A stretch of 64,000 nucleotides of DNA. Source: a virus. The translations under genes and the position numbers were made by a program. The notes under the pieces were generated by a model that worked only from the letters and a program-made list of their open reading frames with translations, was not told the origin of the DNA and did not search any database. This document shows positions 43,784-63,863 of this stretch, one piece after another. Position 1 is the first letter of the stretch. Each line of letters starts with the position of its first letter. The stretch lies in the UHGV virus genome UHGV-1550212; one strand, 5' to 3'.

Positions 43784-44842
43784 TTACTGCTTCAAGCCTG
43801 TGAACAGTTCATACTTGAATGCAGGCCCTGCTGTGTAAGCCTCAAAGTAGAAGTCACCAATATTGATGCTTGCAATAGCGTCATCGACAGCTTTCTTGTA
43901 GCCTACACGTTCAATTGTCTGCTTATCGCATTTACGCCAATATGTGCTGTGCATCATAAGCGTGGGTGATGCAGCATAGTCTACTGCAAGCTGTTGTTTT
44001 GCAGTGTCAATGTGATGTTCATAGATGTGCACATCATTGCCAGTCCAAATGAACTCTCTTGCCACACAGTTAGTCAATGTTGCAACAATATGTGTAAGCA
44101 ATGCATATGATGCGATATTGATGGGCACACCAAGACACATGTCACAGCTACGCTGAGTAAGCGCACAGTCAAGCCACATGCTTGGTACTTGAGCAGAATC
44201 AAGGCATTCTGCAGAACCATCATGCACAAGCATGCTATCATTAGCAATCTGAATTCGTTCTTCAAGAGTCATTGGCTGACAATTGAACTGAAACAGCATA
44301 TGACATGGCGGCAATGCCATCTGAGACATTTGCGCAGGATTCCATGCAGACACGACTTTGTAGCGGCCAGTTGGATTGATGACAATGTCTTTAATGCAAG
44401 TTGCAAGTTGGTCAAATCCACTGTCATTGAAGTTGCGCCACTGATACCCATAGATAGGTCCGCAATCACCATACTCAGGTTTGCTGAATTTTGTGTTGTG
44501 CAGTTCTGTGCACCAAGTGTCAAAGTCGACATCTTCACCTGGATGCAGCTTTTGCCAATGACGATATGCATCCTGATGCCAGAACTTTGTAATGCCAAGC
44601 GTGTCAAGCGTTTTGACATTAGTGTCACCTGACATAAACCACAGAAGTTCTCCAATGACGCCTTTGACAAACATTCTCTTGGATGTCAACAGTGGAAAGC
44701 CTTTACGCAAATCAAATCGCATTGATTCTACAAACAATGACTTTGTGCGAGGCATGTTTTCACGAGCAGGTTCCTTAAATCTGCCATGCTCAATAACATT
44801 ATTAAGTACTCTCAAGTACTCAGTGTCGTGTTTGATATTCAT
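43784..44842 (-). CDS. thyA: Thymidylate synthase (ThyA family) with an internal insertion
   Basis: FPLLTSKRMFVKGVIGELLWFMSG, GPIYGYQWRNF, ALPPCHMLFQF, QRSCDMCLGVPINIASYALL; Asn at the pyrimidine-specificity position. Confidence 0.8.
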   Translation of the reverse strand: MNIKHDTEYLRVLNNVIEHGRFKEPARENMPRTKSLFVESMRFDLRKGFPLLTSKRMFVKGVIGELLWFMSGDTNVKTLDTLGITKFWHQDAYRHWQKLHPGEDVDFDTWCTELHNTKFSKPEYGDCGPIYGYQWRNFNDSGFDQLATCIKDIVINPTGRYKVVSAWNPAQMSQMALPPCHMLFQFNCQPMTLEERIQIANDSMLVHDGSAECLDSAQVPSMWLDCALTQRSCDMCLGVPINIASYALLTHIVATLTNCVAREFIWTGNDVHIYEHHIDTAKQQLAVDYAASPTLMMHSTYWRKCDKQTIERVGYKKAVDDAIASINIGDFYFEAYTAGPAFKYELFTGLKQ

Positions 44843-45464
44843 GAATGGGATGTTTATGAGTGTCTAATGATATGTCTGAGAATTCATATGCATACTTTGA
44901 TATTGCAACACCATTTGCGTCTTCAAATGCTTCTGTAAAGTTGCTGTCAATCCATCGTTTGACAGACTTAACTCCGCCTAAATGACATGCTGCAAGCAAT
45001 GATGCTTCGGTTATTATAAATGCGCTATCATTGTATGTCGCTTTACGCCCAATTGCGTCATAGCAATTGTAGTGCTGCAGCAATTCTTGTTGACGTTCAA
45101 GTAGCATATGCTGTGCCGCAATCTGCTTTGTAGAATCTTTGGCAATTTCTTGCAGTGACCAAGTCAATCCTTTGTATCGTACCAAGTCATCATGAGCAAT
45201 CTTTGTTAGCTGCCATCGCCCTGTTGCGCCAAATCGATTTGTGATATGCCAACGATTACGAGATTCAAGATAGCCCAGCTTGTCTAAGTATTCTGCAAAG
45301 CTGCAAGTTTCTGGTTCAGTGACGTCTAACAAGACGTGTACATTTGACAAATTTGCGACTGGCGCATATGTGACATGTTTTGTTGCAGTGCAATCACATA
45401 ATGTCGGCCATGCAATGATAAAAGCAACACCAATTTTGATGAGCGATTCACATAATCTTATCAT
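44820..45464 (-). CDS. SLT-domain lytic transglycosylase-like protein
   Basis: Trimmed to ATG 45464; ...YLESRNRWHITNRFGATGRWQL (E-S...GAxGxxQ pattern); hydrophobic N-terminus. Confidence 0.4.
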   Translation of the reverse strand: MIRLCESLIKIGVAFIIAWPTLCDCTATKHVTYAPVANLSNVHVLLDVTEPETCSFAEYLDKLGYLESRNRWHITNRFGATGRWQLTKIAHDDLVRYKGLTWSLQEIAKDSTKQIAAQHMLLERQQELLQHYNCYDAIGRKATYNDSAFIITEASLLAACHLGGVKSVKRWIDSNFTEAFEDANGVAISKYAYEFSDISLDTHKHPIHEYQTRH

Positions 45465-45529
45465 TTGTTTGAAATTAGTGAAGAGCACTTGCAGGCAGCT
45501 CAATCTCCTGACAGTACACTGTCATGCAA

Positions 45530-47407: not shown

Positions 47408-47448
47408 TCTAAATGAGATTTAGATTATGTTCGAATATATGAGAACAT
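47408..47448 (-). promoter_or_regulatory. Leader element: inverted repeat TCTAAAT-GAG-ATTTAGA plus palindrome ATGTTCGAATATATGAGAACAT (copy 2)
   Basis: Immediately upstream of helicase ATG; near-identical to 54361..54402. Confidence 0.5.
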
Positions 47449-47465
47449 ATATTATTTGTAAAAAT

Positions 47466-47494
47466 ATAATACTACAATCAGCATACATTTGCAC
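47466..47494 (-). promoter_or_regulatory. Sigma70-like promoter (GTGCAA-N17-TATTAT)
   Basis: Direct reading. Confidence 0.4.
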
Positions 47495-47499
47495 TTTGA

Positions 47500-47529
47500 C
47501 ATAACTGATTGATACTCAATCAGTTATGA
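47500..47529. promoter_or_regulatory. 13-bp perfect inverted repeat CATAACTGATTGA-TACT-TCAATCAGTTATG upstream of helicase promoter
   Basis: Direct reading; two CTGTCAGCTGTC direct repeats follow at 47586 and 47625. Confidence 0.4.
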
Positions 47530-47649
47530 GTTTATAAAAGTTTTCAAAAGTAGGGTGTTGTTGTTTGAGTAGAGTGTTGCTGATTCTGTCAGCTGTCTTG
47601 TTTGCGTTATCGATTGCTTGCAAACTGTCAGCTGTCATAGAACATCACA

Positions 47650-47685
47650 AAAGCAAGCAGACTACAATTGCAGTCTGCTTGCTTT
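47650..47685 (-). terminator. Intrinsic terminator after 47706..48062
   Basis: AGCAAGCAGACT-loop-AGTCTGCTTGCT, 14-bp stem. Confidence 0.55.
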
Positions 47686-47705
47686 GACATAGTTGTAATG
47701 TGAGT

Positions 47706-48062
47706 CTACTTGCGCATAAACAATGCAGCAAGCCAATTCACTGGCTTGTCAATAAGCTGCTTCCACATAGTCCAATTGTACATGCCATGCGCAAACATTG
47801 TAAGAGCAAACAACAGCATGCACATTGATACAAGCCAATCAGCAAATGGCATATTGCCCCATCGAATGTACTCGAAAATGCCAACTTTAACAAGCTGAGC
47901 AAACAAAATGAGCATTACAGCCATTGCAAGTCGCATCCAGACTACATATTGCTGAGTCTTATCTACAAACTTTGCAATCAATGCTGGCACAAAGTACATA
48001 ATGTACGCAAACAGCAACAAGCAAAAGCCTGCATACAGCAGATTAGAAATAAAAGCTCCCAT
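47706..48062 (-). CDS. Multi-pass membrane protein (118 aa)
   Basis: ATG start; hydrophobic throughout. Confidence 0.55.
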   Translation of the reverse strand: MGAFISNLLYAGFCLLLFAYIMYFVPALIAKFVDKTQQYVVWMRLAMAVMLILFAQLVKVGIFEYIRWGNMPFADWLVSMCMLLFALTMFAHGMYNWTMWKQLIDKPVNWLAALFMRK

Positions 48063-48065
48063 ATT

Positions 48066-48947
48066 TTATCGTTTGAATTTGATGAAGTGTTCAGCATCAA
48101 GGCCCTCAAATATGTACGGGTCAAGAGTTTCCCAGAAGTTTGAGTATGTCGTTGTCTTTGCAATACTTGTCTGCTTTGACAAGTTCATGTTTGGATAGCC
48201 AAGCATTGCATAGTGTCGCTCATATATGTGCATTGACGTTGCATTATGCATATAAGCGCCAAGCTTAAGACCAAGTTCATTTGCGACAAGTTCTTGCAAC
48301 AAAGTGAATGCAAACTGGTCGTTACAGAAGCCCCAAATGACATCATTGCTTCGCATATATGTTGTCAAGTACAGCTTATCACCACGAACATTGAAAACAA
48401 GATTCAATGTGCACGGCATATCTTTGCCAGTGTAGTTTGCATATTGCGGCTCATAAATGCTAATAACTGCTCGTCTTGTGCATTCATGATTTCGCAAACG
48501 TTCAATGACATCTGCAATCTGCTTGTGCCAAATTGCGCCATACTGTGAATTGACATTGACGCCATCATCACTGAACTGCTTCCAACGAGGCAAATAACGT
48601 TCAATGCATTCAACTGCAGGATTGGCTGTCATATACCATGCAAATTCTGCAGCAGCATTGAGCTTTTTCCATGGTCGTACATCAATCTTGATTTGTCGCT
48701 GTGAAGGGTCCTGAATAACTACAGACACATTCAGCAATTCTTTTGTTCGAGTCACTGTTTGTGCATTGTTGCCCTTTGATTCTACAAACTCACCTCTACA
48801 ATGAAGTTCATACAAAATTGAGCGAAATGCTTCTGTTGCAGTGTTTTCAACGATTGTCGTCTGTTGATAGCATAAATTTGACGACAATGCTTCAGCATCA
48901 TTGTACTTTATGCTGTCATTGTCATAAGGTGAATTTTTTGTGTGCAT
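48066..48947 (-). CDS. dCMP hydroxymethylase-like ThyA-fold enzyme (T4 gp42-like)
   Basis: ...DMPCTLNLVF, YMRSNDVIWGFCNDQFAF, SMHIYERHY; Asp at the position where thymidylate synthases have Asn. Start at 48947 chosen; ATG at 49088 also possible (would overlap HAD gene). Confidence 0.65.
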   Translation of the reverse strand: MHTKNSPYDNDSIKYNDAEALSSNLCYQQTTIVENTATEAFRSILYELHCRGEFVESKGNNAQTVTRTKELLNVSVVIQDPSQRQIKIDVRPWKKLNAAAEFAWYMTANPAVECIERYLPRWKQFSDDGVNVNSQYGAIWHKQIADVIERLRNHECTRRAVISIYEPQYANYTGKDMPCTLNLVFNVRGDKLYLTTYMRSNDVIWGFCNDQFAFTLLQELVANELGLKLGAYMHNATSMHIYERHYAMLGYPNMNLSKQTSIAKTTTYSNFWETLDPYIFEGLDAEHFIKFKR

Positions 48948-48972
48948 ATTTTGGGATGTTTGTTTTTTATTA

Positions 48973-50067
48973 TCATACAACGATAGTATCTCGTTTGCAA
49001 TCTGTTTTGTCAAATATTGAACAACAATACGATGCAGATTGTTCTTTGATTTCAAGAGCTTCATCATTATCAAGTGATGAAATGCCATCTATGTATGCTT
49101 TTGCATTGCCAGCAATGTCATCATTTGTTAACAACGCTGCACGACGTTCAGTGCCAAAGAAGCCAAAGCACAATTGATGTTGCAGTGCTTCACGAGAAGT
49201 CTTGTCATCAAACTCTGATTTCATGTGTTGCATAAATTCGACAATATCATCAATGTCGCATTGAGTAAAGTCAATGCACAATTTATGCATGTACTTGAAT
49301 CGTTTGTAGTCTGTTGCAAGAATTTCTGGGTGCACAATGAACAACGTCTTTTTGCTGTCTATTGGATTTGCAATGACTGATGCTTGAACATAATCGACAA
49401 GCATACCAGATTCACGAAGTTGCTCAATTGTTTTGCCAAACACATGCCCAAGCGTGTCATCAAACCACTTCAAGTATGCTTCACTGTCTTCATCTTTTGA
49501 CGCGCCAACAATGTAAATCTCATTGACTCCAAGTGCTTTGAGACGAGTATCAGACAACATAGTATTCAATTGATGCTGCACGTACAGCATTGGGCTGCTA
49601 TGCAAAACCGTTTTAACAATCTCACAAGCAATGTCCATATATGCATAGTCAAGCTTTGCAGATTTTGACACATACACTGCACGTTGCTGCAATGGCTCAA
49701 TTGCCGAGCATGTAGTTACAAAGTTGCCAACACATTCTGCTACTGCAATGTCATGCAAGTCATCTGCAATGTACACAATACTTGACAAGTCATCAAATGT
49801 TTGAACAAGTTGCTGAAGCTTTGTTTTGTAATTGCAGAGCATCAATGACTTGATGTTGCAATTACTTAGCATTGTCTTGATGAGTCGTTGACCTGCTTCA
49901 GTGCTGTCACCAGAAATGACATGCACATCGCAGTCAAACCAGTTCAGCATGTCAATTGCATGCCGAACACCATATTGCATTTGTTTTGCAAACTTACCAG
50001 ATTCATTGAACAGCATTTCACCTGACATAATGCCGTCAAAGTCACATACGATTTGAAGTCTGTCCAT
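48973..50067 (-). CDS. HAD-superfamily phosphatase domain protein with C-terminal domain
   Basis: VCDFDGIM (motif I DxDG), VHVISGDS, IADDLHD. Confidence 0.55.
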   Translation of the reverse strand: MDRLQIVCDFDGIMSGEMLFNESGKFAKQMQYGVRHAIDMLNWFDCDVHVISGDSTEAGQRLIKTMLSNCNIKSLMLCNYKTKLQQLVQTFDDLSSIVYIADDLHDIAVAECVGNFVTTCSAIEPLQQRAVYVSKSAKLDYAYMDIACEIVKTVLHSSPMLYVQHQLNTMLSDTRLKALGVNEIYIVGASKDEDSEAYLKWFDDTLGHVFGKTIEQLRESGMLVDYVQASVIANPIDSKKTLFIVHPEILATDYKRFKYMHKLCIDFTQCDIDDIVEFMQHMKSEFDDKTSREALQHQLCFGFFGTERRAALLTNDDIAGNAKAYIDGISSLDNDEALEIKEQSASYCCSIFDKTDCKRDTIVV

Positions 50068-50431: not shown

Positions 50432-53400
50432 TTAACAAATTGATGATGTGCCATCAGTGTTTGCTACAACTGTCAATGCGCTATCAAACTCATCTTGCTG
50501 TAACACATGGTCAACTATGAGTGTTTTGCGAATTGCAGAAAGCTTAGTAAGCAACTGCATCAACACTTGCTGATAATTGATGGTGTTGACGTCATGCTCA
50601 GCGCCAACAATCTGCCCGTTGCTAAGCTTGCCGCTAATTTCATCAATGAGCAAGATGTTGCCAACTTTGTTTAAGCGTTGAGTCAAAATGAGATGCACGA
50701 TTGCAAGACCTGCGAAAGTCCCTTCCATACCAGACATTTGACTTACACTTCGAATTGACTTCGAGCCCATCAAGTCAATCATCTTTAGCACATTGTTGTC
50801 ATTGATGTCAAAGAACACTCGGTAGTTCAATGAATCAAGCAAATCATTGAGCTGTGCATTCAGTGATGTTGCAATTGCTGCAAAGACATATGAAACTAAG
50901 CCTCGTTTGCTTGTGCACTGCTTATATGCATTGTACACCAAGTTTGCAATGTTCCACTTTTTCGAAGCTTGCAAATCTTTCTTGAGAGCTTCAATTCGCA
51001 CATTGTTTGCTGACAAGTCTGCTTGCATTGTTGCAATTTCTGCATTGATGCTTAGCAGTTTTGAGTTTGCTTCAGTTTCATGCTGCTTAGCATCATCAAT
51101 GTCGACTTGCAATGCAGCGTTTGCCACAATATGCTGCTGAGTTTGCTGTGCATGTTCAAGTGCAAATGCTGCAGCAGTCTTGTCAATCTCAAGTTGTTTA
51201 AGAGTAGACTCATATGATGCTTTCTTATCATATTCTGCTTGAGCAATTTCAAGTTCAGCATTTATTGCAGCCAGTTCTGATTCTACTGCAGATTTTGATT
51301 GCAATACATCTTGCTTTGCTTGTTCAGCTTTACGTTTGATGTCTGCAAGTTGATTTGTGATATCTGCAATTTGCGTTTTGACTGCTTCAACTTCAAGCAA
51401 TGTTGCTGCAGTAGCCATTGGCTGTGCAATGAATGCATCCAAGTCTCTTTGCGCATTGACTACAGTTCTTTGCAAGTCATTAAGCTTTTCTGCATGCATA
51501 TCATATGCAGCTTTATGTGCTGTATTCAGTGCAGCAATTATTGCATTTGAATCTGTGACATCAATGATTGCTGCTTGCAATTGCTCAATCTCATACTTCA
51601 AATTGCCAATTTTGACAACATTCTCATTGAATTGCTCTGTCTTTTGCGCGTATTCTTGACGCAACTTAGCAAGCTCAGTTGACAACCACAGCTTGTATGC
51701 TTGCCCTGTGCCAGATGTCAAATCATTTGTGCACACAGGACATTTATCATTTTCAAGTTGCTTTTGCTTGTCTATAACATTGTCGATGTTTGTTTTTGCA
51801 GCAGATACTTCTGTTCTAAGTGCATTTTGAACAGTGTTGATGTCTTCAATTTGCTTTTGCAAAGCATCTATTTTTGCCCGAGTGTCTGCATTATATGACT
51901 TGCCAAGATTTACCAGCACAGAATCAATGCGCTGCTTTGCTGCATCATATGCAAGCTTTGATTCATCAAGCTTTGTTCTGTACAATGATTCTGCATGCGC
52001 AACTTCTTTCTGCACTTTTGCAGATAGCTCATTCTGTTTTGTAAGCAGCTCAGCATATGTATTGTGCAGCTGTGAGCCAGATGCTATGACATTTGTGTAT
52101 GCTGCATTAGCTTCATTGTCAATATTAGTGAGTTGTTGCTCAATCTGCGCTTTTACTGTTTGCAATTTAGACATGTCTTGCAATGCAAGTGCAGCAATGT
52201 CAAGCTCAACTTTGCGAATCTTTGCAACGATGCTATCGACATTTGCTGTTGCATCTTCTACAGTTAAAATATCTGCAGGAATTTGATGCAGTCTTTTTGA
52301 GAGCTCTTCTACTTTTGCACGTGCTTTTGTAAGTTTTGCAGACCATTCCCTTTGATTATCTTGTCGTAACTGCAAAGAGTCATTGAGTTCATTGCAAGTT
52401 GTATTGAGAGACTCAAGTTCTGCTTTTATTGCGACATCAGTCAATGCGGGCTTACTAAGGCCATCAAACAATGCGGCCTTTGCAGCATCATTAGAATTGC
52501 CCAGTTGCACGAATGTGTTGATGCCAAGAGTATCAAGCAACCAGTCATTCAATGAATTTGAATCCATTGCAATGATTTGGTCAAGTAATGTCTGATTGAT
52601 GCAGACATATCGCGACAATTCCCAGATAGAACCAAAGATTGCGTATAGCGTGTCTTTGATTTCATGCTGTGGCACTACGTAGTCATCTGACAATCTTACA
52701 AGCTGCACAGTCTCATTGACTGCTGACACGTTATCTCGCCATGAGCCATCTGCATTTATTCGAGAGCCCCGTTTGAATCTACGTTCAAGTGTTCGAGTTA
52801 ATTTGTAGTGAACATTTTGACCAGCTACTACATGTACAAATACACAAGATGCTTCAAGCTTATCATATGACTCATTGTCAATCAATTTGTCATTGAAGTA
52901 TGTCAAAGCGTTCTGCTTTGTTGCTGCAGAAGACTGTCCAGCGTCAATAAAGCCAGTCAGCAGCCATTTAATGAGTCTGAAGATTGTTGTTTTGCCATTG
53001 CCGTTGTTGCCTCTAACTTGTGTAAGCTGTGCAAGATTGTCAAAGCTGACATCGACATCTTTCAATGCCATGAACTGATTTGCTTTGACATTTTGAATGA
53101 CGTATTTTGCAACTTCAGTGTCAAAAGACAATTTATCAATTTGCTCATCAATCAATGACTTGAACATGTCAACAAACTGCTGAGCGTCTTCAGTAGCAAC
53201 TATAGCATTGCGTTCAATGTACGCATTGACCCAGTCAAGTGCAGCATCTTTAAGCCATTCAGCAGTTTGAACTTTTTGCAGCAAATTGTCGCCATTTGCA
53301 TCTACAGCATTGATTGAATCAATGACAGCAGAATCATACAGAATGTCAATTGCGGCAACAACGTATGAACTTACAAGATTCTGTGCAATGCGCTCAACAA

Positions 53401-54417: not shown

Positions 54418-54446
54418 ATTGTACAACATATGTTATCATTTTGCAA
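54418..54446 (-). promoter_or_regulatory. Sigma70-like promoter (TTGCAA-N17-TACAAT)
   Basis: Direct reading. Confidence 0.45.
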
Positions 54447-54783
54447 GCATTTTGATGATTGCATCTATCACAGTTTCACTGAGCAAGTAGTAGACAACGC
54501 TTATCAGCAATGATATCAGTACTGCAGCTGTGATAAATTGCAACGCATTCACAATTGCACGCACAAATGTTATCTGCGTGTTGTATGCAAGCACTATGCA
54601 GCATAGCACAATAATGACACACCAGACTACAATTGCATATGCAGGCATCAATGAATTTGTCCATATGCAGTACAATACAGTAATTAGCATCAAAAATGCT
54701 ATTGCTCTGATAACTGACACAATGATGTCTATGTAAGGCTTCATTGCACGCAAATGAACTCTTGGTTTATGTTGCTTCATCAT
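54436..54783 (-). CDS. Multi-pass membrane protein (115 aa)
   Basis: ATG start; hydrophobic. Confidence 0.55.
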   Translation of the reverse strand: MMKQHKPRVHLRAMKPYIDIIVSVIRAIAFLMLITVLYCIWTNSLMPAYAIVVWCVIIVLCCIVLAYNTQITFVRAIVNALQFITAAVLISLLISVVYYLLSETVIDAIIKMLAK

Positions 54784-56012
54784 GACTTTATGTACAATTC
54801 TGCAAGTTGTCTGGTGTACAGTCGTGGATTATGATATGCTTTCCAATACGCAGTAGACTTTATTGCAGCAAGAATTTCATCATAATGTTTGACTGCTTCT
54901 GCTACAACTTCATCAAGCACGCTCAAATCTTCTACACTGACAAGCAACCATTTTTCTACAATATCAATGAACTCCTGATTGCAATTGAAGCCATACTTGT
55001 AGTTGCAAGTATCAAGTACAAGTGGAATGCAATCATTTGTCAATGCTTCAAAAAATCTACGAAGACTGAAACAATTCTCATCATATGATGGAATGCTCAA
55101 TGTAAACTTGGCAGTCTTGATGAGTTGCAAATACTCTTCGTATGGAATCAGAGGACCATTGTGCTTCCATTGATTATTGTGTCGTCTTGTCGTGTACTTG
55201 AACAAAAACTTTGAATTGTCAAGTTCACAAAGATGGTCCATGCGTAAAATGTAGTTATAGCGGTCTCTTCTGTCAGGCCAACTGTCAGTCATCGCAAACA
55301 CAAAGTCTCTTTGCTTGTCACATTTTGCTGACATACCTCTATGCTGACACATGCAATACCAATATTGCTGCGATGGGCTGAACTCAAACTTTGAATGATG
55401 CTCACTTCCATCTTTGCATTGCTGAACATAAATGTTGTCAGGCACAAAGTGAAAATAAAAGTGTCGAATTTGCAAGTCATTGATGTAGTCAAGCTTATGC
55501 TGCAATGGGTCTTCACAGAAATTGTAACACTGAATATGCTTTGCTGCTGCGTACTCAGCAACTATGAACGTGCACATCCATTGCAATGCAATATCTTCAC
55601 TCTTCAAAAAGTTTACAAGCGGCTCATTTGGATGCGCTTTGCATTCATTGAACATTTTGTACCACTTGCATTGCTCCATATCGTACTTTGATACTGTATT
55701 GCCATTAAAGAACGACACAGTGTCAATTTTGAATGCATCAAGTTGTTTATGCACAATGTCAAGTGCTTGTGCGTATGTGATTGTCTCATCAGACATTATC
55801 TGCGCAAACTTGATTGGATGCGCATGCAAATTTGCGATAGTGTCTGCCGACATTTTACGCTGTGTGTGATAATCGACATACAAAAACTGACACTTGTCTG
55901 TAAGCAATTCAAGCATTGCTACAGATTTCCATCGAATTGCTTGAAAGAAATTGAAGTGTGCAGTTTGAAAGATGAGATGCGTAGGTTTATCAGAATGAGT
56001 CAAAGTTTGCAT
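54780..56012 (-). CDS. Glycosyltransferase-like protein (GT-B type), cassette 1
   Basis: C-terminal ...IPSYDENCFSLRRFFEALTNDCIPLV (E...EA..x.P motif); paralog of 59060..60616. Confidence 0.45.
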   Translation of the reverse strand: MQTLTHSDKPTHLIFQTAHFNFFQAIRWKSVAMLELLTDKCQFLYVDYHTQRKMSADTIANLHAHPIKFAQIMSDETITYAQALDIVHKQLDAFKIDTVSFFNGNTVSKYDMEQCKWYKMFNECKAHPNEPLVNFLKSEDIALQWMCTFIVAEYAAAKHIQCYNFCEDPLQHKLDYINDLQIRHFYFHFVPDNIYVQQCKDGSEHHSKFEFSPSQQYWYCMCQHRGMSAKCDKQRDFVFAMTDSWPDRRDRYNYILRMDHLCELDNSKFLFKYTTRRHNNQWKHNGPLIPYEEYLQLIKTAKFTLSIPSYDENCFSLRRFFEALTNDCIPLVLDTCNYKYGFNCNQEFIDIVEKWLLVSVEDLSVLDEVVAEAVKHYDEILAAIKSTAYWKAYHNPRLYTRQLAELYIKS

Positions 56013-57175
56013 GGACAAATGTCGCAGTTATGTTGATGTTTGTGTTTATTTATGAAGTCATATGTCACTGCAAAAAAGTGCTTTGCAATGTCATATCGAG
56101 TTTTCAAATATGCTGCTTGGCGTTCACAAAACGCTGCATAAATGTCTGGGTGTCGTTTGAATGCAGCAATGCGTTGCTGTACTTGTTCTGCAGAATGTAC
56201 ATATGACACTTTGCTCAAATATGCATCATCTGCAAATAATCGTCTGTCTTTGTCAACTGCGCAATCAACAAAAGTTGCAATTCGTGCAACAATGGCTTCA
56301 CCAACACGATTTGGCATCAACCCATATTGCTCATATTGTTGGTCACCGATAGCAATGTGCGCTGCTGCATATGACATTGCATATGGCACACTATAAAATG
56401 GCACACTAAAATCAAATGAGCAATTTGACTGTAGTAGTTGCGTTTGTGCATCAGACAATCTACTTGTCAAGTTGCCTGTATGTTTGTGCTCACCAAGAAA
56501 ACTTGAGCGACAACCTGAATCTACATAGTATCGAATGACTTTGTTTATGCGACTGTCAGATAGCATATGCCAATCTCTTGTAGCATATATCAAGTCTACT
56601 GTTTTTGCACCAATATGACGAGGCTCTATCGCAACATTGCTGTATGTTGGCAGCATGAACAATGGCAGCCATTTGACATTGTTGAACACTGAATGTTCAT
56701 TTGACAAATTCATGCACTGGCTAAGTTCAAGTACTGGCTCATCATACACGCCATGCAGTTCAACTCTGCCTGCATGCACAAAGTTGACACGCTTAAATGG
56801 AAATCGCATATCAGTGCAAACCGTCATTCTTGCTGCAGTAGACATTCGCCACATAGCATGCAGCTTAACAACTGCTTCGGCTTGAGGTCGAGGCAGCATA
56901 TTTAGCAAATCAATCCAGCCACCCCACAAAATCCAAACATCATTTGAACAGATGTTGAATTGCAAACTCAATATGTCTTCTACTGTTGCAGCAATGATGT
57001 CATGCCCATTGATGCTTGCAAGGTGCTTTCGTTGATTTGCAATAAGAATGACTTGACTGAACGGAGACTCTGGAAATGACACAAGCGCCTTTGCAAACAA
57101 CACGGGTTCTTGTGATACCAAGTTGTTTGAGTATGGGTCGATTATGCAATCAAGCTTGTGTATGAAAAGTCTCAT
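56000..57175 (-). CDS. Possible DNA glycosyltransferase, cassette 1 partner
   Basis: ...ILWGGWID...TVCTDMRFPF; paralog of 60613..61779; resemblance to T4 beta-glucosyltransferase is from memory and weak. Confidence 0.4.
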   Translation of the reverse strand: MRLFIHKLDCIIDPYSNNLVSQEPVLFAKALVSFPESPFSQVILIANQRKHLASINGHDIIAATVEDILSLQFNICSNDVWILWGGWIDLLNMLPRPQAEAVVKLHAMWRMSTAARMTVCTDMRFPFKRVNFVHAGRVELHGVYDEPVLELSQCMNLSNEHSVFNNVKWLPLFMLPTYSNVAIEPRHIGAKTVDLIYATRDWHMLSDSRINKVIRYYVDSGCRSSFLGEHKHTGNLTSRLSDAQTQLLQSNCSFDFSVPFYSVPYAMSYAAAHIAIGDQQYEQYGLMPNRVGEAIVARIATFVDCAVDKDRRLFADDAYLSKVSYVHSAEQVQQRIAAFKRHPDIYAAFCERQAAYLKTRYDIAKHFFAVTYDFINKHKHQHNCDICPCKL

Positions 57176-57906
57176 TTTGCAGACGATTCAAAAAATTTGT
57201 AGACATCACAGTTAGCAATGTGGTCATTCCAAGCATCTTCAGAGTCTGCAACAAAGCCACAATGACAGCGTTTTGGCTGCCAAACTGGTTCAACTACTGC
57301 AGGCATTGCTTCTTCAATAGTGTTTGCAGGTTCATTATCTGCTGGCAATACTTCAACGTCTTCAACTTGTGCTGCATCTTGTTGTGCACGCTGCTCAATG
57401 ACATTGCCCTCAAAGTCAAACTGAATGCCAGCTTGTTCTGCTTTTGTACGATTGTTACGAGCTACGAACAAATACGCAAAGATGAATTCGACAAGCGCTA
57501 TGGCAAGTGACTTCAGTGCATTGACAAGAAGCATGATGCCCGTTGACAAGTGGCCGTCAAAGCTCAAAAATACGAACACGCATGTAAAGCATGACATAAA
57601 CACTGCAATCAGTGGAATGTTCTTGTATTTTGGCAACAAATCAGAGTTGACTGATGTAAGCAACACAACGAATTGATAACCTATTGCAAGCCAATAGTCG
57701 CCAAACACTGCATAGATATGCGTAGTGATGCCAATAAGAAATGTGATAGTCACAATCATAATGAGCAACACACTTGTCAGAAAGTCTGCAATAGAATTGC
57801 TGAGCTTGTCATACCAGTGTTTGTTGACAATTGATGTGTTGGCTACGCGCACTTTACTAAGTGCATCTATGCCGCTTTTGATATTTGATTGTGCTTTCAT
57901 ACACAT
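57172..57906 (-). CDS. Multi-pass membrane protein with C-terminal Cys/His cluster (244 aa)
   Basis: Hydrophobic N-terminal half; C-terminus ...RCHCGF...HIANCD. Confidence 0.6.
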   Translation of the reverse strand: MCMKAQSNIKSGIDALSKVRVANTSIVNKHWYDKLSNSIADFLTSVLLIMIVTITFLIGITTHIYAVFGDYWLAIGYQFVVLLTSVNSDLLPKYKNIPLIAVFMSCFTCVFVFLSFDGHLSTGIMLLVNALKSLAIALVEFIFAYLFVARNNRTKAEQAGIQFDFEGNVIEQRAQQDAAQVEDVEVLPADNEPANTIEEAMPAVVEPVWQPKRCHCGFVADSEDAWNDHIANCDVYKFFESSAK

Positions 57907-58050: not shown

Positions 58051-58065
58051 CTTGAGTCAAAAAAT

Positions 58066-58109: not shown

Positions 58110-58164
58110 TGGCAGGTTTCTTGCTTTGTAAAGCTTGGATAGAGGATGGATTTTATATGTTGAT

Positions 58165-58193
58165 ATTGTACAACATGCAAAATGCATTTGCAT
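58165..58193 (-). promoter_or_regulatory. Sigma70-like promoter (ATGCAA-N17-TACAAT)
   Basis: Direct reading; proximal of a tandem pair. Confidence 0.4.
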
Positions 58194-58211
58194 TTTGATA
58201 CAACATGCATT

Positions 58212-58240
58212 TTGATACAACATATATTGTCATTTTGCAC
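58212..58240 (-). promoter_or_regulatory. Sigma70-like promoter (GTGCAA-N17-TATCAA)
   Basis: Direct reading; distal of tandem pair. Confidence 0.35.
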
Positions 58241-58445
58241 AGTCTGAGGCAATCAAATCTTTGTCAAAGCATTCATCTATAATGTCTTCAATAAGATACG
58301 CTTCGACATTGTTAAGCTTCAAGATATCTACGAGTTTTGCTTTGATATCGCAAGCTAATGCAGATTCAACTGTATGCAATATGACTGATGATGCGACATG
58401 CTTGTCTGTCATCATTTGTAATTGCTGTGGTGTTACTCTACTCAT
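58230..58445 (-). CDS. Hypothetical protein (71 aa)
   Basis: ATG start, ATGA overlap with kinase gene. Confidence 0.45.
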   Translation of the reverse strand: MSRVTPQQLQMMTDKHVASSVILHTVESALACDIKAKLVDILKLNNVEAYLIEDIIDECFDKDLIASDCAK

Positions 58446-59014
58446 GCGCCAAGTTCAGCTAAGCATTTTAGCACATTGTCTTGCAGACTTACATTGTTGT
58501 CGATTTCGACAATATGCAATGGTGAGTTCTTTCGCCACTCATCATATGCAGCAATCATTTTATTGCGTTTGTTGACATCAATGTTGACATCGCCACAAAA
58601 GTTATCAACAAAATCTGGTGCAACATCACGCTTGCATAAGAACACTATATGCGGCAATGTTGCAAGCTTCTTTTCATATGCTTCAAAGAATGCTTGATGC
58701 TTATCAGTGTGCAACTCTTTGTAAAGCGTTGTGTTAAAGATTTGATGTGTGATGAACGAACGGTCACACAAAAATGTTGCTTTGCCAAAGCCTTTAGAGT
58801 CATTTCCAATGAACTCTAAGAAGAAGCGCCAATCATAAAAGAACGCTTCATTGAGGTCCCAAGGTTCGGGCATTGGGTCATCACCTGACTCATGCTGTTG
58901 CCACCAAGAACGAGATGTTCGTTTGCAATTGATAAACCATGGGCGCCACTTCATCAATTCATTGATGAGTGTTGTTTTGCCTGAAGCTTCTACACCTTCA
59001 AATATCGCTATCAT
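58442..59014 (-). CDS. P-loop nucleotide kinase (thymidylate kinase-like)
   Basis: IAIFEGVEASGKTTLI (Walker A). Confidence 0.65.
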   Translation of the reverse strand: MIAIFEGVEASGKTTLINELMKWRPWFINCKRTSRSWWQQHESGDDPMPEPWDLNEAFFYDWRFFLEFIGNDSKGFGKATFLCDRSFITHQIFNTTLYKELHTDKHQAFFEAYEKKLATLPHIVFLCKRDVAPDFVDNFCGDVNIDVNKRNKMIAAYDEWRKNSPLHIVEIDNNVSLQDNVLKCLAELGA

Positions 59015-59039
59015 TGTGTATTATGTTTGATTTTTGATT

Positions 59040-59068
59040 ACAGTACAACGTAGTTATGCTCATTGCAC
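59040..59068 (-). promoter_or_regulatory. Weak sigma70-like promoter (GTGCAA-N17-TACTGT)
   Basis: Direct reading. Confidence 0.3.
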
Positions 59069-60616
59069 TTCTACGAATGGCTCTTTCAACACAAAGCTGT
59101 CACCATTGCAACATGCGGCTGAGCCATCGTCTGCATCAAGTGCACATGACATATCAGACTTGCAGAACTTGCAATATAAACATGACCATGCATGACTCAT
59201 GAAGTTGTTTGCTTCACAAATTGCGCAACGCTCATGCATAAGTGCATTGTCGCAATTATCACAAGACTTCTTGATTGGCACAGTTTTGTTGATGTATGCA
59301 AGATGCAATGCAATATCATACACAAAGTCACCCGTATATTGCTGAATGAAATCAGTATGCCACAACTCTTTTAACAATTGTGCATGTCTATATGGCTGAA
59401 CAATGTCTTCAAGATGCTGCAAGTCATCATCGCTAACCATGAGCTTCTTAATGACAAATTGTTTGAACTGTGGCCATCTGTCAAACATATAGAGTTTGCA
59501 TGAGTTGTGCACAAGTGGAACACAGCCAAGCACAATGCTTTCACAGAATCTACGCAAACTAAAACAGTTTGCATCATATGACGGCACAATCAATGTGAAT
59601 CTGCTATGCTTGATGAGTTCAAGGTATGTGTCATATGGCAGTAGCTTATCTGACAATTGCTGTTGTTGTTTGTCTCTGCTGAAAAATCTGAACACAATAC
59701 CCTTGTCAATTGCATCTTGATTGTGCAGATGCATGAGTTTGTTGATGAGTTCTGTGCGTTCAGTTTTGTCTCGCCAAGTATTCGTCAATGCAAATGCAAA
59801 ATTCAGTCGCTTGTCATCAAACGTCGCTTCAATATCATTCCAAGTTTTGTCATGCAAATACCAGTATTGCTGTGATGGGCACCATCCATAATATGCAATA
59901 GCATCTTGTTCTGCTGTAACGTCATACACATATGCAGAATTGTATTCAAGGCCAAGCCTTTTGACGTTGTTGCAGTCATGAAAGTACCAATGCTGCACTT
60001 TGAATATCTTTGATGCACTGAATGCGCTTTCATATGGCCCTGAATAGCGATAGTCAATGTAATTGAGCTTGTGCTGCAATGGGTCTTCGACAAAGTTGTT
60101 TATGACTGTGCCTTGTTGTTTGCCCTTAGTCTTGCGAGCATTCAATGCAACATTGTATTGCATGATGACTGACAGCATCTCATACACTACATACATGAGT
60201 GCTTTGTAGACTGAGCCTGCTGCGTCAATTAGTGGCAAATCACGTTTGACTGATGTAGCGCCAAATGTCTTGCAATATGCAGAAAATGTGTCAAGTTCTG
60301 CTTGCTGAAATGAATTGCATGCACCATTGAATATGTTGAATGTTGCAATGTAGCTCATATTGCAAGATGTCATTGACATATCAAGACGCTTCATAATGTC
60401 GACAATGCGACATTGAGCAAAATCTGACACATCAACATATTTGACATGATGGCCTGATGTAGTCAAGCCATCTGCGACATCTTTCATCTGTGGCACAAAG
60501 CCTACAACAATGAATAAGTCATCTTTGTTTGCTCGTTCAAACATTGCTGCACTTTTCCAAGTCAATGAATTGAAAAAGTCTATGTAGCCAGTTTGAGTGA
60601 TTATATGCGTTCTCAT
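59060..60616 (-). CDS. Glycosyltransferase-like protein (GT-B type), cassette 2
   Basis: ...VPSYDANCFSLRRFCESIVLGCVPLV; N-terminus also parallels 54780..56012. Confidence 0.45.
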   Translation of the reverse strand: MRTHIITQTGYIDFFNSLTWKSAAMFERANKDDLFIVVGFVPQMKDVADGLTTSGHHVKYVDVSDFAQCRIVDIMKRLDMSMTSCNMSYIATFNIFNGACNSFQQAELDTFSAYCKTFGATSVKRDLPLIDAAGSVYKALMYVVYEMLSVIMQYNVALNARKTKGKQQGTVINNFVEDPLQHKLNYIDYRYSGPYESAFSASKIFKVQHWYFHDCNNVKRLGLEYNSAYVYDVTAEQDAIAYYGWCPSQQYWYLHDKTWNDIEATFDDKRLNFAFALTNTWRDKTERTELINKLMHLHNQDAIDKGIVFRFFSRDKQQQQLSDKLLPYDTYLELIKHSRFTLIVPSYDANCFSLRRFCESIVLGCVPLVHNSCKLYMFDRWPQFKQFVIKKLMVSDDDLQHLEDIVQPYRHAQLLKELWHTDFIQQYTGDFVYDIALHLAYINKTVPIKKSCDNCDNALMHERCAICEANNFMSHAWSCLYCKFCKSDMSCALDADDGSAACCNGDSFVLKEPFVEVQ

Positions 60617-61779
60617 GATTTGAATGTTTGTTCAAGAATTGTATAGCACTGTGCAATCATTGTTGCAAGAGCTTTTTGCTGAAGCTGTTTGCAATTTGAA
60701 GATATTGTGTATTGCTGACGCTCAGTTGTAGTACTGCTTAATGTCGCAAATTGCAGGTACTCATCTTCTGACATGATATCAGCAAACAATGCAGACAATT
60801 CATAATCTACAATGACATTTGAGCAGTTTGCAAGTACGCCTTCAACCCATCGATTTGGCAACAAACATGCTTGCACATACAATGAATCGCCGACTACAAG
60901 ATTGCACATTGACTGCGACATTACATACGTCATCATGTCATATGGCACTTTGTACTTAAGTGTGAAGTTTTGTGCTGCTGACTTAATTGCTTGCAGAATT
61001 GTGTCATCAAGATATGATGTTATAAGGCAAGTATTGTATGCCTGCATAATGTAACGCTCAATCACGCTTCTACGATACTCGTCAAGATATGTGAAACCTG
61101 CACAACTTGCACAACATGCATATTGCTGCTTTATGTCAGCAAAGCTACACACATGCGCTTCAATTGCATTTTGCATTGTTGCTTGTCGTTTGAGCAATCT
61201 TGGCTCTTTAATGCATTGAAGCTTCAATGCATTGACTGCTGCAATGATTTGCAATGGCACAAACACGCATTGAGACTCATCAAGCCAAGCATACTTGAGA
61301 TTTTTATGTTGACACAGATGCGTAATGTTGTCTTTTTGTGATTCTAAGTACTCTTTGTAATTATGCAATCGCTTTGTCAATGTGCACTCTTTGTCAAAAT
61401 CAAATCGCAAATCAGTTGTTAGTGTAAATTTGCGAACATTTGACAAGCACCATGCTTTGAATGCATTCCACAGAACATCTTGCTGAAATTCTGAACAATG
61501 TTCAAGAGCAGCCTTTGAGCCCTGCCAGAATATTGCGCAATCATCTGATTTTGCACACTTCAGCATATCTTGCCATGCATGTATGCTATTGATGATATGC
61601 ACTTTATTATGCACAAGCTCATTAAGTGTTGCATGCTTGTTCTCAGGGTCGCCAAACACGTATACTGTATCAAACATTGTTTGAACAAACCCTGCAAATG
61701 CAATGGGTTCTGTATGTTTAAGATGCTGTATGTCTGAACGCACACATGTGTCAAATTTCAAAATGAAGAGTTTGCTCAT
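60613..61779 (-). CDS. Possible DNA glycosyltransferase, cassette 2 partner
   Basis: ...IFWQGSKAA...TLTTDLRFDF; paralog of 56000..57175. Confidence 0.4.
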   Translation of the reverse strand: MSKLFILKFDTCVRSDIQHLKHTEPIAFAGFVQTMFDTVYVFGDPENKHATLNELVHNKVHIINSIHAWQDMLKCAKSDDCAIFWQGSKAALEHCSEFQQDVLWNAFKAWCLSNVRKFTLTTDLRFDFDKECTLTKRLHNYKEYLESQKDNITHLCQHKNLKYAWLDESQCVFVPLQIIAAVNALKLQCIKEPRLLKRQATMQNAIEAHVCSFADIKQQYACCASCAGFTYLDEYRRSVIERYIMQAYNTCLITSYLDDTILQAIKSAAQNFTLKYKVPYDMMTYVMSQSMCNLVVGDSLYVQACLLPNRWVEGVLANCSNVIVDYELSALFADIMSEDEYLQFATLSSTTTERQQYTISSNCKQLQQKALATMIAQCYTILEQTFKS

Positions 61780-62416
61780 ATGCTTTGCAATTATCTATTA
61801 CATGTTGATATTGTACTTCATCTATGATGTGATTTGCAATGACACCATATGACGTGTCATACATTGGCATCTTCTCATATGACAATGCTGCGTCAAGATT
61901 GCATATCACATAATTGCAATGCACAATGTCATCTACATTGTCACTAACTGCTACGATATTGACGCAATTTGCAAGAAATGCATCATCAAAGTCTACTTGA
62001 TTGCATGCAACCTCATAATCTGCAGCACTTCTTGGGTACCAATATAACTCAATGCCGGCACTACTAAGTAGTCGCAAGCCATCTATGTGATGATACAAGT
62101 CAACAAAATGCACTTGCTTAACGCCTGCTTGCAAAATAAGCTTTGCGCAATCAATGCATGGACTATATGTTACATATAGCACTGCGTCATTTGCAGTCGC
62201 ATTGCCATATTTGCACAGCTTCATCAATGCATTTGATTCTGCATGCAAAACTTCTTTGTTGGTTTTGATGCCTGCTGATGTTGCATGTTCACAACAATTT
62301 GACATGCCAGTTGGCATGCCATTGTAGCCATCTGAAATTATGCAGCCATCTTTTACAAGCAATGCGCCGACTTTTGCTCGCTGAGCATGTGAATTTAATG
62401 ACCAGAGCTCAGCCAT
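61751..62416 (-). CDS. dCMP deaminase
   Basis: HAESNAL (H-A-E zinc motif), SPCIDCAKLI (PCxxC); start chosen at MAELW (62416), ATG at 62476 also in frame. Confidence 0.75.
   Translation of the reverse strand: MAELWSLNSHAQRAKVGALLVKDGCIISDGYNGMPTGMSNCCEHATSAGIKTNKEVLHAESNALMKLCKYGNATANDAVLYVTYSPCIDCAKLILQAGVKQVHFVDLYHHIDGLRLLSSAGIELYWYPRSAADYEVACNQVDFDDAFLANCVNIVAVSDNVDDIVHCNYVICNLDAALSYEKMPMYDTSYGVIANHIIDEVQYQHVIDNCKAYEQTLHFEI
61810..61839 (-). promoter_or_regulatory. Sigma70-like promoter (TTGCAA-N18-TACAAT) inside 3' end of deaminase gene
   Basis: Direct reading. Confidence 0.4.
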
Positions 62417-62480
62417 TTTAAGATATATGAGATTTCGTTGAAACCACTTTGTTTCAGACCAAGTTAGCCATTTCATATGC

Positions 62481-63863
62481 TTATAGTGAATTTATGATTT
62501 TGCTGAAGTCTGTTACAATGTTTGAATGCAACTCAATGAGATAGTTGTCTTGCAATGTCATAAGCTCATCAAGTTCATCTACACTTAATGACTTGAAGAC
62601 TTCTGCACAATGCTTGGCATTTTTGATGTGTGCGACTTTATGATACTTGATAAAGTCAGGACACACACAATTATTCACGTACATACAAGGCAAGCCTGCA
62701 AGCATTGATTCAGTTGCTCTGAATGTAATTGCGTTGCATTGTTTCATATTCTCTTCACACACAATGTATGCAAAATCGAACTGTGACAAGTATGTTAACA
62801 TGTCAAAATACTTGATTGTGCCATCATAGACATGTGGCATATCAATGTCAATATTGCCGACAACATGAGTTTCGATGTCTGCGCAGCCAAGCAAATCAAT
62901 GACTTCTTGTTTGCGTTCAGCACACATGTCATTCCAAGCCACCATCGGCATTGCAGTAGTCAACTTGCCTGATTGCAATTTTGCTAAACGTTTTTCATTA
63001 TGTGATGCATACAATGGAATGCCTTCAAGTCTTGCATGCTGAATTGCGTTGACATTGATTTCTGTCAACATTGACAACGCATTATGTATGTTCTGCGCTT
63101 GTGTGACAACTGTCATCTTTTTGCAGTGCAATCTAAAGTTTGCAATGTGTGGCACGAGTCGTAAATCATACCATAGCCATACAATGTCGCCCTTCCATGA
63201 TTCAATGAGCTGCTTGTGCTGTTTGTAGATGACTGACTGACTCATCGAGTCATTCATTGCTGAGCATACAATGTACAACACACCATATTTGTCAATTGAG
63301 TGCTGCACATAGTCAGCTGAGCAGCATAGCACATCTTTGTCGAAAAGTTTTGGGTCATGCACTTCTGCATCATCTACAATAAGATGCGCCTTGTATTGAT
63401 GCCGCTTTGTTACATCAATGATGCGAGCAATTGCGAAACATTCTCTGCTTTGAATGTCTGTCTTGTCTTGTCGCAGCTGGTCTTGTGTTCGTACTGGATA
63501 CGCAGGTTTCAGTATTACAGGCACAAAATGTGTTTTTGCAGAATATGGTGCATCTACTGCAGCAAACTCCGCGTTGCATCGTTGTGAATGCAGATGTCGT
63601 GCATATGATTGCAACAATTCATGAATCATTGCAATATACTCTTCCAATTCAAACAGCTCGTGTTCAGTTGCGTTTGTTATGTCAACTACGACAGTTTGTC
63701 GCACAATTGGATACACACAAATAACGTAATCATTATATGGCAGTGGAATGCCTATAAATGTTGAGCATCTGTTTCGAAGCCATGCAATGCAATCAACATC
63801 AAACACAATTTCATATTGCTGCTGCAAAGCATTTAATTGCGCTATAATCAAATCATTGTGCAT
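62481..63863 (-). CDS. Glycosyltransferase-like protein (GT-B type), 460 aa
   Basis: ...ITFRATESMLAGLPCMYV (E...G.P motif). Confidence 0.4.
   Translation of the reverse strand: MHNDLIIAQLNALQQQYEIVFDVDCIAWLRNRCSTFIGIPLPYNDYVICVYPIVRQTVVVDITNATEHELFELEEYIAMIHELLQSYARHLHSQRCNAEFAAVDAPYSAKTHFVPVILKPAYPVRTQDQLRQDKTDIQSRECFAIARIIDVTKRHQYKAHLIVDDAEVHDPKLFDKDVLCCSADYVQHSIDKYGVLYIVCSAMNDSMSQSVIYKQHKQLIESWKGDIVWLWYDLRLVPHIANFRLHCKKMTVVTQAQNIHNALSMLTEINVNAIQHARLEGIPLYASHNEKRLAKLQSGKLTTAMPMVAWNDMCAERKQEVIDLLGCADIETHVVGNIDIDMPHVYDGTIKYFDMLTYLSQFDFAYIVCEENMKQCNAITFRATESMLAGLPCMYVNNCVCPDFIKYHKVAHIKNAKHCAEVFKSLSVDELDELMTLQDNYLIELHSNIVTDFSKIINSL

Follow-up and report, generated by a model that had tools for sequence, protein, structure and literature searches.

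A predicted 5-hydroxymethylcytosine pathway and five GT-B glycosyltransferases in the modification module of a large uncultivated phage

Introduction

What kind of DNA does a phage make when two enzymes of the thymidylate synthase (ThyA) fold and a row of putative glycosyltransferases (GTs) stand together in its genome? The question is raised by a 20-kb run of genes at positions 43,784–63,863 of a 64,000-nucleotide stretch of virus genome UHGV-1550212, the whole of which is referred to here as the window. A preliminary description, made from the letters alone, proposed that this run is a DNA hypermodification module in which hydroxymethyl-pyrimidine synthesis is joined to five GT-like genes. 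Having followed it up computationally, we consider it likely that the locus combines a T4-type, pre-replicative replacement of cytosine with an unusually large set of enzymes that glycosylate the DNA after replication. The two legs of this reading are a ThyA paralog with the active-site signature of a deoxycytidine monophosphate (dCMP) hydroxymethylase, and five transferases, here called A1, A2, B1, B2 and C, three of which are related to the beta-glucosyltransferase (BGT, or beta-GT) of T4. Glycosylation of cytosine protects phage DNA against restriction enzymes and CRISPR nucleases, and glycosylated cytosines are themselves the targets of type IV systems. Each new glycoform is another step in the arms race and a source of new enzymes for the labelling of 5-hydroxymethylcytosine (5hmC).

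The window matches a section of the 174,628-bp IMG/VR contig IMGVR_UViG_3300045988_152288 with full identity, at positions 96,001–160,000 by our own mapping. Two comparators are used throughout, namely a sibling contig from the same sample (~95–98% identical to the window contig), against which all ratios of nonsynonymous to synonymous substitution rates (dN/dS) were calculated, and a divergent relative, the Logan contig L002, which shares 30–54% amino-acid identity with the module proteins.

The ThyA paralog and its predicted product

The base chemistry of the module turns on the second of its ThyA-fold genes, which matches PF00303 in Pfam (84 bits) and whose best matches among solved structures in a PDB search were two cytosine hydroxymethylases, MilA (E 1.4e-22) and T4 gp42 (E 2e-11). 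Of the ordinary thymidylate synthases among its PDB matches, the first is 1njc, an L. casei enzyme with the mutation N229D. Active-site residues were read from an alignment of the paralog, T4 gp42, RB69 gp48, the canonical ThyA of the window, the homolog from Chryseobacterium phage MA9V-2 and E. coli ThyA, the last of which served for residue numbering only. The catalytic Cys is retained in a column that is invariant across the alignment, and three residues before it, at the position of E. coli L143, the paralog has an Asp (KDMPC, vs SDFMC in T4 and ALAPC in E. coli). A second substitution, N177D, is found in GFCND, aligned with T4 GFRND and E. coli LPFNI, while the Asp at the D169 position is kept (MRSND as in T4 gp42; RB69 gp48 has MRSQN and gp182 of Sphingomonas phage PAU has MRSNN). 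The paralog thus carries the gp42 signature, including the motif MRSNDV..GF.ND: its MRSNDVIWGFCNDQ aligns with MRSNDVVFGFRNDY of T4 gp42, an Asp falling on N177 of E. coli, and MRSNDVIWGFCND is near-identical to MRSNDVVFGFRND of T4 gp42. In the same alignment, the canonical ThyA of the window is E. coli-like at L143, D169 and N177.

Roles for these three positions are available from tested enzymes: N177D is the switch for cytosine specificity, an acidic residue at L143 admits water and is the switch from methyl to hydroxymethyl transfer, and D169N is a signature of the flavin-dependent 5-hydroxy-dCMP synthases (Lee et al., NAR 2026, PMC13326640). Because D169N is present in RB69 gp48 and PAU gp182 and absent from the window enzyme, the product of the latter is predicted to be 5-hydroxymethyl-dCMP rather than 5-hydroxy-dCMP. 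The dCMP hydroxymethylase signature noted in the preliminary description, with an Asp at the specificity position, was recovered, and the paralog stands apart from ordinary thymidylate synthases, carrying the cytosine-hydroxymethylating signature of T4 gp42 and MilA without D169N. The gene evolves with a dN/dS of 0.033, and its true start is probably Met48 (48947), since a start at 49088 would overlap the upstream gene by 116 nucleotides.

Five GT-B transferases in two paralogous pairs and a singleton

By blastp, the five transferases resolve into two paralog pairs, A1/A2 (30% identity, E 7e-47, full length) and B1/B2 (24% identity, E 2e-14), and the singleton C. All five have GT-B folds, with C, B1 and B2 specifically related to the T4 DNA beta-glucosyltransferase; the preliminary count of five glycosyltransferase-like genes is accordingly right as to their reality and fold, but the five are not independent of one another, being two paralogous B–A pairs plus C.

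The relationship of B and C to BGT is distant. B1 matches phrog_7922 at E 5e-8, over profile positions 184–342 only; T4 bgt itself scores 623 bits against this profile, which identifies it as the T4 beta-glucosyltransferase family, GT63 in CAZy. Searched by sequence alone, B2, C, A1 and A2 gave no match to phrog_7922, one relative of the C family matches it at E 9e-7, and on these scores the five transferases are best described as distant relatives rather than clear members of PHROG 7922. B1 returned nothing significant in a sequence search of PDB chains, and B2 and C had no match in Pfam, PHROG or NCBIfam. At the profile level, a B profile of nine sequences aligned by hhalign with T4 BGT and its relative from an Enterococcus phage (Planchet GT) at a probability of 97.8% and E 1e-12 over 282 columns, placing TD122MRF of B1 on TD100IRL, R209 on R195 and R290-x-x-E293 on R269-x-x-E272. 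In the structural literature on T4 BGT, Asp100 is the catalytic general base, with Arg269 and Glu272 binding uridine diphosphate. Equivalents of the catalytic Asp and of R-x-x-E are D122, R290 and E293 in B1, D123, R310 and E313 in B2 (motifs TD123LRF, VGDSLY and R310xxE313) and D233, R382 and E385 in C, and the fold of the BGT-like transferases was found to be a two-Rossmann GT-B fold nearest to T4 beta-GT. On this evidence C, B1 and B2 are classed as beta-GT-like GT-B enzymes, and they would widen a family known mainly from T-even phages.

A1 and A2 are likewise classed as GT-B enzymes, their acceptor being less certain than that of B and C. Fold searches with the A family returned T4 BGT as the top PDB match (for A2 as well) and a 'DNA beta-glucosyltransferase' as the top viral match, together with lipopolysaccharide (LPS)/O-antigen and exostosin enzymes at similar Z. 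The sole family-level sequence signal of the A family is to GT47 and CgeB-like polysaccharide-type GTs, and membership of A1 and A2 in GT47/exostosin was rejected with PF03016 below its gathering score. An R-x-x-E motif and a candidate E-D pair, E177/D178 in A2, were seen in both proteins, with no further equivalents of the BGT catalytic residues. A sequence search of PDB chains with A2 gave nothing significant, hhalign gave no signal for A vs B or for A vs T4 BGT, and the weak alignment of A with C (37.7%, E 3e-4) superimposes their R-x-x-E and W-x-D-x3-R motifs. The A proteins may therefore be regarded as a second, unclassified GT-B family that is tightly coupled to B1 and B2. The tail of A2 (59060–59281) contains several CxxC-like pairs with the look of a zinc ribbon, is confined to A2 and the homolog closest to it, P0002, and was not modelled by AlphaFold.

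The arrangement of these genes is conserved. Every gene at 43.7–63.9 kb lies on the minus strand, and the start of each A gene lies within its B gene, with an overlap of 4 nucleotides for B2/A2. L002 has the genes in the window order (C, dCMP deaminase, B2, A2, kinase ... membrane protein, B1, A1), at 30–54% identity. Against the sibling contig, dN/dS lies between 0.03 and 0.13 for the hydroxymethylase, phosphatase, kinase, deaminase, A1, B1, A2 and C genes (0.032 for A1, 0.066 for B1 and 0.085 for the phosphatase gene) and between 0.03 and 0.2 over all genes, values that indicate purifying selection on every module gene. Since gene order is kept at such divergence and dN/dS is this low, the module genes are taken to be real genes.

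B2 has a history of its own. It is 85% identical to its sibling counterpart (L015:8838-10004), vs 96–99% for neighbouring genes, and in its C-terminal third (residues 236–388) the synonymous rate dS is 0.85 and the nonsynonymous rate dN is 0.22, most neighbouring genes having dS of 0.1–0.2. This third is mosaic between the sibling contigs with the catalytic motifs intact, and the combination of high local dS with intact motifs points to an exchange of the donor-binding domain by recombination between sibling phages. B2 would thus be a natural donor-domain swap between two near-identical phages.

All three families are very rare, with 2–14 relatives in protein collections that run to billions. 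In a set of 5.8 billion clustered proteins, relatives of A, B and C number 6, 5 and 2, respectively. Phage records found by tblastn were 1 for A2, 4 for B1 and 0 for C, and when IMG/VR was scanned with profiles of A and B, the source contig and a single sibling were the only matches. The distant members of the C family that were looked up lie on 1.5-kb contigs only, and the C-family alignment is too diverse for a locus scan. The isoelectric point was no discriminator of DNA-acting GTs from others, as the T4 alpha-GT is acidic too. The proteins encoded at 43784–63863 are unusually rich in Cys (2.9% overall, with 11–20 Cys per transferase), T4 beta-GT having zero.

Companion genes of the module

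The genes that may supply or accompany the modification are listed with the transferases in Table 1. The preliminary description named a thymidylate synthase, a dCMP deaminase, a phosphatase of the HAD superfamily and, at 23.4–24.3 kb, MazG and dUTPase-family genes, all of which were found, the last two by both Pfam and PHROG matches. The dCMP deaminase consists of an N-terminal deaminase domain followed by ~100 amino acids without assigned function, and occupies the same position in L002 (54% identity).

Table 1. Predicted genes of the modification module and associated nucleotide-metabolism genes (positions in the window)
Feature	Position	Strand	Basis and remarks
MazG-like NTP pyrophosphatase, candidate dCTPase	23468..23842	-	PF03819 E 8e-9; phrog_229 E 1e-35
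dUTPase / dCTP-deaminase-fold protein	23844..24335	-	PF00692 E 7e-11; PF22769 E 3e-7; phrog_135
Canonical thymidylate synthase	43784..44842	-	PF00303, 256 bits; 352 amino acids with insertions
Predicted dCMP hydroxymethylase (5hm-dCMP synthase), ThyA paralog	48066..48947, ORF (open reading frame) extends to 49088	-	Pfam and PDB matches, alignment
KdsC-type HAD phosphatase domain (amino acids 1-150) and 200-amino-acid domain without assigned function	48973..50067	-	Immediately upstream of the hydroxymethylase
A1, which lacks the Cys-rich tail of its paralog A2	54780..56018	-	Start 56018 (TTG) or 56012 (ATG); weak Pfam GT47, Glyco_trans_1_2
B1, BGT-like glycosyltransferase	56000..57175	-	phrog_7922 and hhalign to T4 BGT; overlaps start of A1
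Conserved membrane protein, 244 amino acids	57172..57906	-	~4 hydrophobic segments, C-terminal Cys/His motif (hydropathy)
Tmk/YorR-like P-loop nucleotide kinase, candidate 5hm-dCMP kinase	58442..59014	-	Weak profile matches
A2, divergent GT-B glycosyltransferase with GT47-like donor-domain signature	59060..60616	-	Cys-rich C-terminal tail, amino acids 445-518
B2, BGT-like glycosyltransferase, paralog of B1	60613..61779	-	Member of the B profile matching T4 BGT
dCMP deaminase	61751..62476	-	PF00383, 74.7 bits; between C and B2
C, predicted BGT-like DNA glycosyltransferase	62481..63863	-	GT-B core at amino acids ~115-460, extra N-terminal ~115 amino acids

The putative nucleotide kinase of the preliminary description is upheld in part, as a P-loop kinase with a homolog in MA9V-2 (36% identity, E 3e-28, to an annotated 'thymidylate kinase') whose likeness to Tmk and YorR is weak. 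Its profile reaches E 0.03–0.09 with the YorR and Tmk structures, which is sub-significant, its matches to phrog_761 and to RB69 gp45 are confined to the P-loop, and the match to Tmk models is again a P-loop match. The gene also lies next to A2 in L002 (49% identity).

By its profile and structure matches, the N-terminal part of the phosphatase protein is KdsC-like. It aligns with positions 4–140 of the 154 of TIGR01670 at E 1e-9, with 38.5 bits against a cutoff of 106.95, and scores 31 bits against NF007019, for which the cutoff is 208; its best PDB matches are solved KdsC structures (2p9j, E 1e-4), and it is 32% identical to MA9V-2 gp142. Membership in the KdsC family proper was rejected since these profile scores lie under the curated cutoffs. 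The C-terminal domain had no match in Pfam, PHROG or NCBIfam.

The proposal that the 20-kb run is a DNA-modification module stands insofar as the named genes lie at or near the positions first given for them, and needs qualifying insofar as a DinG/XPD-like helicase, a fused nuclease and three small membrane proteins lie inside it as well. The nuclease gene (50432–54358, minus strand) encodes one polypeptide of 1308 amino acids that joins an Mre11/SbcD phosphoesterase to a Rad50/SbcC ATPase amid the modification genes, and a Mre11-Rad50 fusion of the same size is gp127 of MA9V-2. The predicted membrane proteins (47706–48062, 54436–54783 and 57172–57906, minus strand) are interleaved with the module; small membrane genes, imm and imm.1, likewise adjoin gene 42 in T4. 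The stop of the largest one overlaps the start of B1 by 4 nucleotides, and this protein is found at the same position in L002 (53% identity) and has zero nonsynonymous changes relative to the sibling contig. C is the first gene after a gap of ~220 nucleotides, and a promoter and terminator scan gave a signal no different from that of shuffled controls.

Proposed pathway and alternative readings

In the pathway that we favour, the MazG-like pyrophosphatase, perhaps with the dUTPase/DCD-fold protein, would turn dCTP into dCMP and exclude it from DNA, and the ThyA paralog would convert dCMP with methylene-tetrahydrofolate into 5-hydroxymethyl-dCMP, its active-site signature being observed and its product deduced from it. 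The Tmk/YorR-like kinase and a host nucleoside diphosphate (NDP) kinase would then raise this product to 5hm-dCTP for incorporation by the split family-B polymerase of the phage, while the dCMP deaminase and the canonical ThyA would supply dTMP, like cd and td of T4. Once in DNA, the 5hmC could be flipped out by C, B1 and B2, which would use an NDP-sugar to glycosylate its hydroxyl by an inverting beta-GT mechanism, with the Asp of TD-x-R as general base and R-x-x-E holding the nucleotide. A1 and A2, translationally coupled to B, might lengthen the sugar that B puts on or work alongside B as its partners, giving di- or oligosaccharide-hmC or alternative glycoforms, and the KdsC-type phosphatase may contribute to the supply of sugar precursors. 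The DNA would probably bear a sugar coat of greater complexity than that of any phage so far characterised, the likely benefit being resistance to restriction enzymes, CRISPR nucleases and type IV systems specific for glucosyl-hmC. Several observations count against this scheme. The kinase assignment is weak, and BLASTP detected no similarity between the MazG protein and T4 gp56, which leaves the exclusion of dCTP a conjecture. The D169 rule is based on a modest number of tested enzymes, and the three membrane proteins interleaved with the module genes have no role in the scheme. Domain scans found no genes for sugar-nucleotide synthesis in the 64-kb window of the ~175-kb genome, and for this reason the sugar donors are probably NDP-sugars of the host.

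The identity of the modified base allows two other readings. Were the ThyA paralog a flavin-dependent 5-hydroxy-dCMP synthase of the RB69, DLP3 and RL38JI type, the sugars would be ether-linked to the C5 hydroxyl; MilA-like structures are also the top matches of known 5-hydroxycytosine synthases, the acidic residue at L143 and N177D are common to both enzyme classes, and PAU has D169N beside B-like transferases, which implies that BGT-like enzymes accompany both chemistries. What decides the matter is the diagnostic D169N itself, which is absent from the paralog (MRSND, as in T4 gp42, vs MRSQN in RB69 and MRSNN in PAU), and the 5-hydroxycytosine reading was rejected on that ground and is judged very improbable. 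An enzyme that methylates dCMP, leading to 5-methylcytosine and leaving the transferases without a hydroxyl on the DNA, is harder still to credit: the Asp at N177 taken alone does define cytosine specificity only, but the Asp at the L143 position is the water-admitting signature of hydroxymethylases and three BGT-like enzymes would be left without an acceptor.

With 5-hydroxymethylcytosine as the preferred base, the number of transferases makes a more elaborate or different sugar decoration, as suggested in the preliminary description, reasonable but unproven. Each of the five could instead add a single sugar directly to 5hmC, differing in anomer, sugar or sequence context or being redundant against host defences, with no chain formed, and this we hold to be a serious if minority possibility. 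T4 runs two GTs in parallel, alpha-GT and beta-GT (T4 annotation; PMC13216743), all five window enzymes keep donor-binding motifs and a candidate acidic base, the DNA-acting T4 BGT is the top fold match even for A2, and a donor domain swapped between siblings, as in B2, is expected if each enzyme sets its own glycoform. Sequential or complexed action is nevertheless a better fit to the tight, duplicated and conserved coupling of B with A through overlapping stop and start codons, and phages with three GTs are known to build chains, tri-arabinosyl in DLP3 and tri-hexosyl in RL38JI. At the other extreme, the B–A pairs and C might build a glycan of at least three sugars, possibly branched, on pre-replicative 5hmC, maybe including a Kdo-like ulosonic sugar with help from the KdsC-type phosphatase and with A as the obligate partner of B in a two-subunit DNA glycosyltransferase. 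We regard this composite proposal as rather unlikely; if true, no DNA glycan of greater complexity would be known from any base-replacement phage, and it would be the work of transferase families that have hardly any known relatives. That part of the set, chiefly A1 and A2, acts away from DNA, on envelope glycans, a lipid carrier or phage proteins and maybe together with the membrane proteins, is suggested by the GT47/CgeB-like signal of the A family, by its LPS/O-antigen and exostosin fold matches, by the three membrane proteins in the cluster and by phage GT clusters aimed at surface polysaccharides (Iyer et al.). Such an acceptor seems distinctly improbable given that the genes lie inside a replication and nucleotide-metabolism region with A coupled to the BGT-like B near the kinase and deaminase, that the top PDB and viral fold matches of A are DNA GTs, that lipid-carrier or flippase genes were not detected, and that small membrane genes also stand next to gene 42 in T4.

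Comparison with known systems

The closest parallel in logic and enzyme classes is the T-even glucosyl-hmC system (T4 gp42, gp56, gp1, cd, td, alpha-GT and beta-GT, with the gentiobiosyl variant of T2 and T6). The two share a near-identical hydroxymethylase active-site motif, a dCMP deaminase and ThyA, and GT-B enzymes homologous to beta-GT. They differ in that the window has five transferases, as B–A pairs plus C, instead of the two or three of T-evens, and in that its BGT-like enzymes are ~18% identical to beta-GT and accompanied by no alpha-GT homolog detectable by sequence. The kinase of the window is Tmk/YorR-like rather than gp1-like, its MazG is not gp56-like, and a KdsC-type phosphatase stands beside its hydroxymethylase.

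In layout, with a ThyA homolog, a Tmk-like kinase, several GT-B enzymes and a HAD phosphatase, the locus resembles those of RB69, DLP3 and Rhizobium phage RL38JI, which have glycosylated 5-hydroxycytosine with multi-sugar chains built on the DNA post-replication (Lee et al., NAR 2026, PMC13326640). The ThyA homologs of these phages, RB69 gp48 and DLP3 gp80 among them, however, are D169N enzymes that make 5-hydroxy-dCMP, whereas the window enzyme keeps D169; the GTs of these phages are GT4-like (BshA, PimA, MshA), whereas those of the window are beta-GT-like; and these phages carry their own NDP-sugar synthesis genes, none of which were found in the window. Among the methyltransferase/TET-dependent glycosylation clusters, the beta-GT-like GT-B enzymes of subclass III decorate 5hmC with mono- to trisaccharides, in which heptose and a Kdo-like acid occur, and one of these clusters also encodes an enzyme with a HAD domain (Pyle et al., bioRxiv 2023.12.21.572611). 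There, 5hmC is made post-replication at specific sites by a C5-methyltransferase and a TET-like dioxygenase, whereas in the window it would arise pre-replication, at the nucleotide level, via the ThyA paralog; no Pfam domain of a C5-cytosine methyltransferase or a TET/JBP-like dioxygenase was found in any window ORF scanned.

Phages of a related lineage offer a finer comparison. The DNA of PAU is reported to be extensively modified, and its gp171–gp187 region (NC_019521, 124045–142893) contains two paralogous BGT-like genes, gp179 and gp180, a ThyA homolog and a thymidylate kinase, with gp32/UvsW nearby. It differs from the window in the D169N and N177D signature of its ThyA homolog gp182 (5-hydroxy type), in its RmlA/B/C dTDP-sugar enzymes and in its GT-A-like gp171, and tblastn detected no A-family or C-family homologs in PAU. 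From this comparison, PAU DNA is predicted to carry glycosylated 5-hydroxycytosine, possibly with a deoxyhexose. The neighbours of gp182 include, besides gp179, gp180 and the RmlA/B/C genes, two ~400-amino-acid genes of no known function. With MA9V-2, the window has in common its type of hydroxymethylase, the kinase and the HAD domain, and tblastn detected none of the transferases A2, B1 and C in that phage. Judged by these signatures, the comparison shows a PAU/MA9V-like lineage that carries interchangeable cytosine-modification cassettes, of the hydroxymethyl type in the window phage and MA9V-2 and of the hydroxy type in PAU.

The novelty of the predicted gene content lies in a pre-replicative hmC pathway that is joined to five GT-B enzymes. 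These belong to two rare and divergent families, the beta-GT-like B/C superfamily and A, and are arranged in duplicated pairs. The general strategy is already known and well established, so the locus would be of value for the enzymes that it adds and, probably, for a DNA glycan not seen before; it makes a good candidate for such a glycan and for new 5hmC-modifying enzymes, not for a new principle.

The phage and other features of the window

Contigs near-identical to the window are also present in ENA and Logan assemblies, and a megablast of 16 kb of the window against 50,697 phage records gave no DNA-level match. The portal protein is of the T4 type (Pfam, 201 bits), with its closest relatives, at 28–33% identity, in the Chryseobacterium phages MA9V-1 and MA9V-2, Sphingomonas phage PAU and the Tenacibaculum phages PTm1 and PTm5. 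Given a T4-type portal at this level of identity and no match at the DNA level, the phage is classed as an uncultivated large (~175-kb) myovirus-like phage with a distant relationship to T4. Upstream of the window, ~10 kb was walked (L016) and contains unannotated ORFs, which are probably structural genes, judged by the adjacent head genes.

A split family-B DNA polymerase is encoded by two ORFs (21138–22430 and 24724–26229, minus strand) that lie 2.3 kb apart, one comprising the exonuclease and the N-terminal part of the polymerase and the other its C-terminal part. Four genes lie between the halves on the same strand, namely a gene of unknown function, the dUTPase-like gene, MazG and another gene of unknown function, and a DUF488-N3a/DUF4326-like protein is encoded directly downstream of the N-terminal half (26245–26655, minus strand). 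Within the head-gene region, a protein with a TnsA-like endonuclease domain (13188–13637, minus strand) may be a mobile nuclease. Nearer the start of the window, a protein of 1399 amino acids (3705–7904, minus strand) has an N-terminal domain that weakly matches the T4-type prohead core protease and is far larger than T4 gp21.

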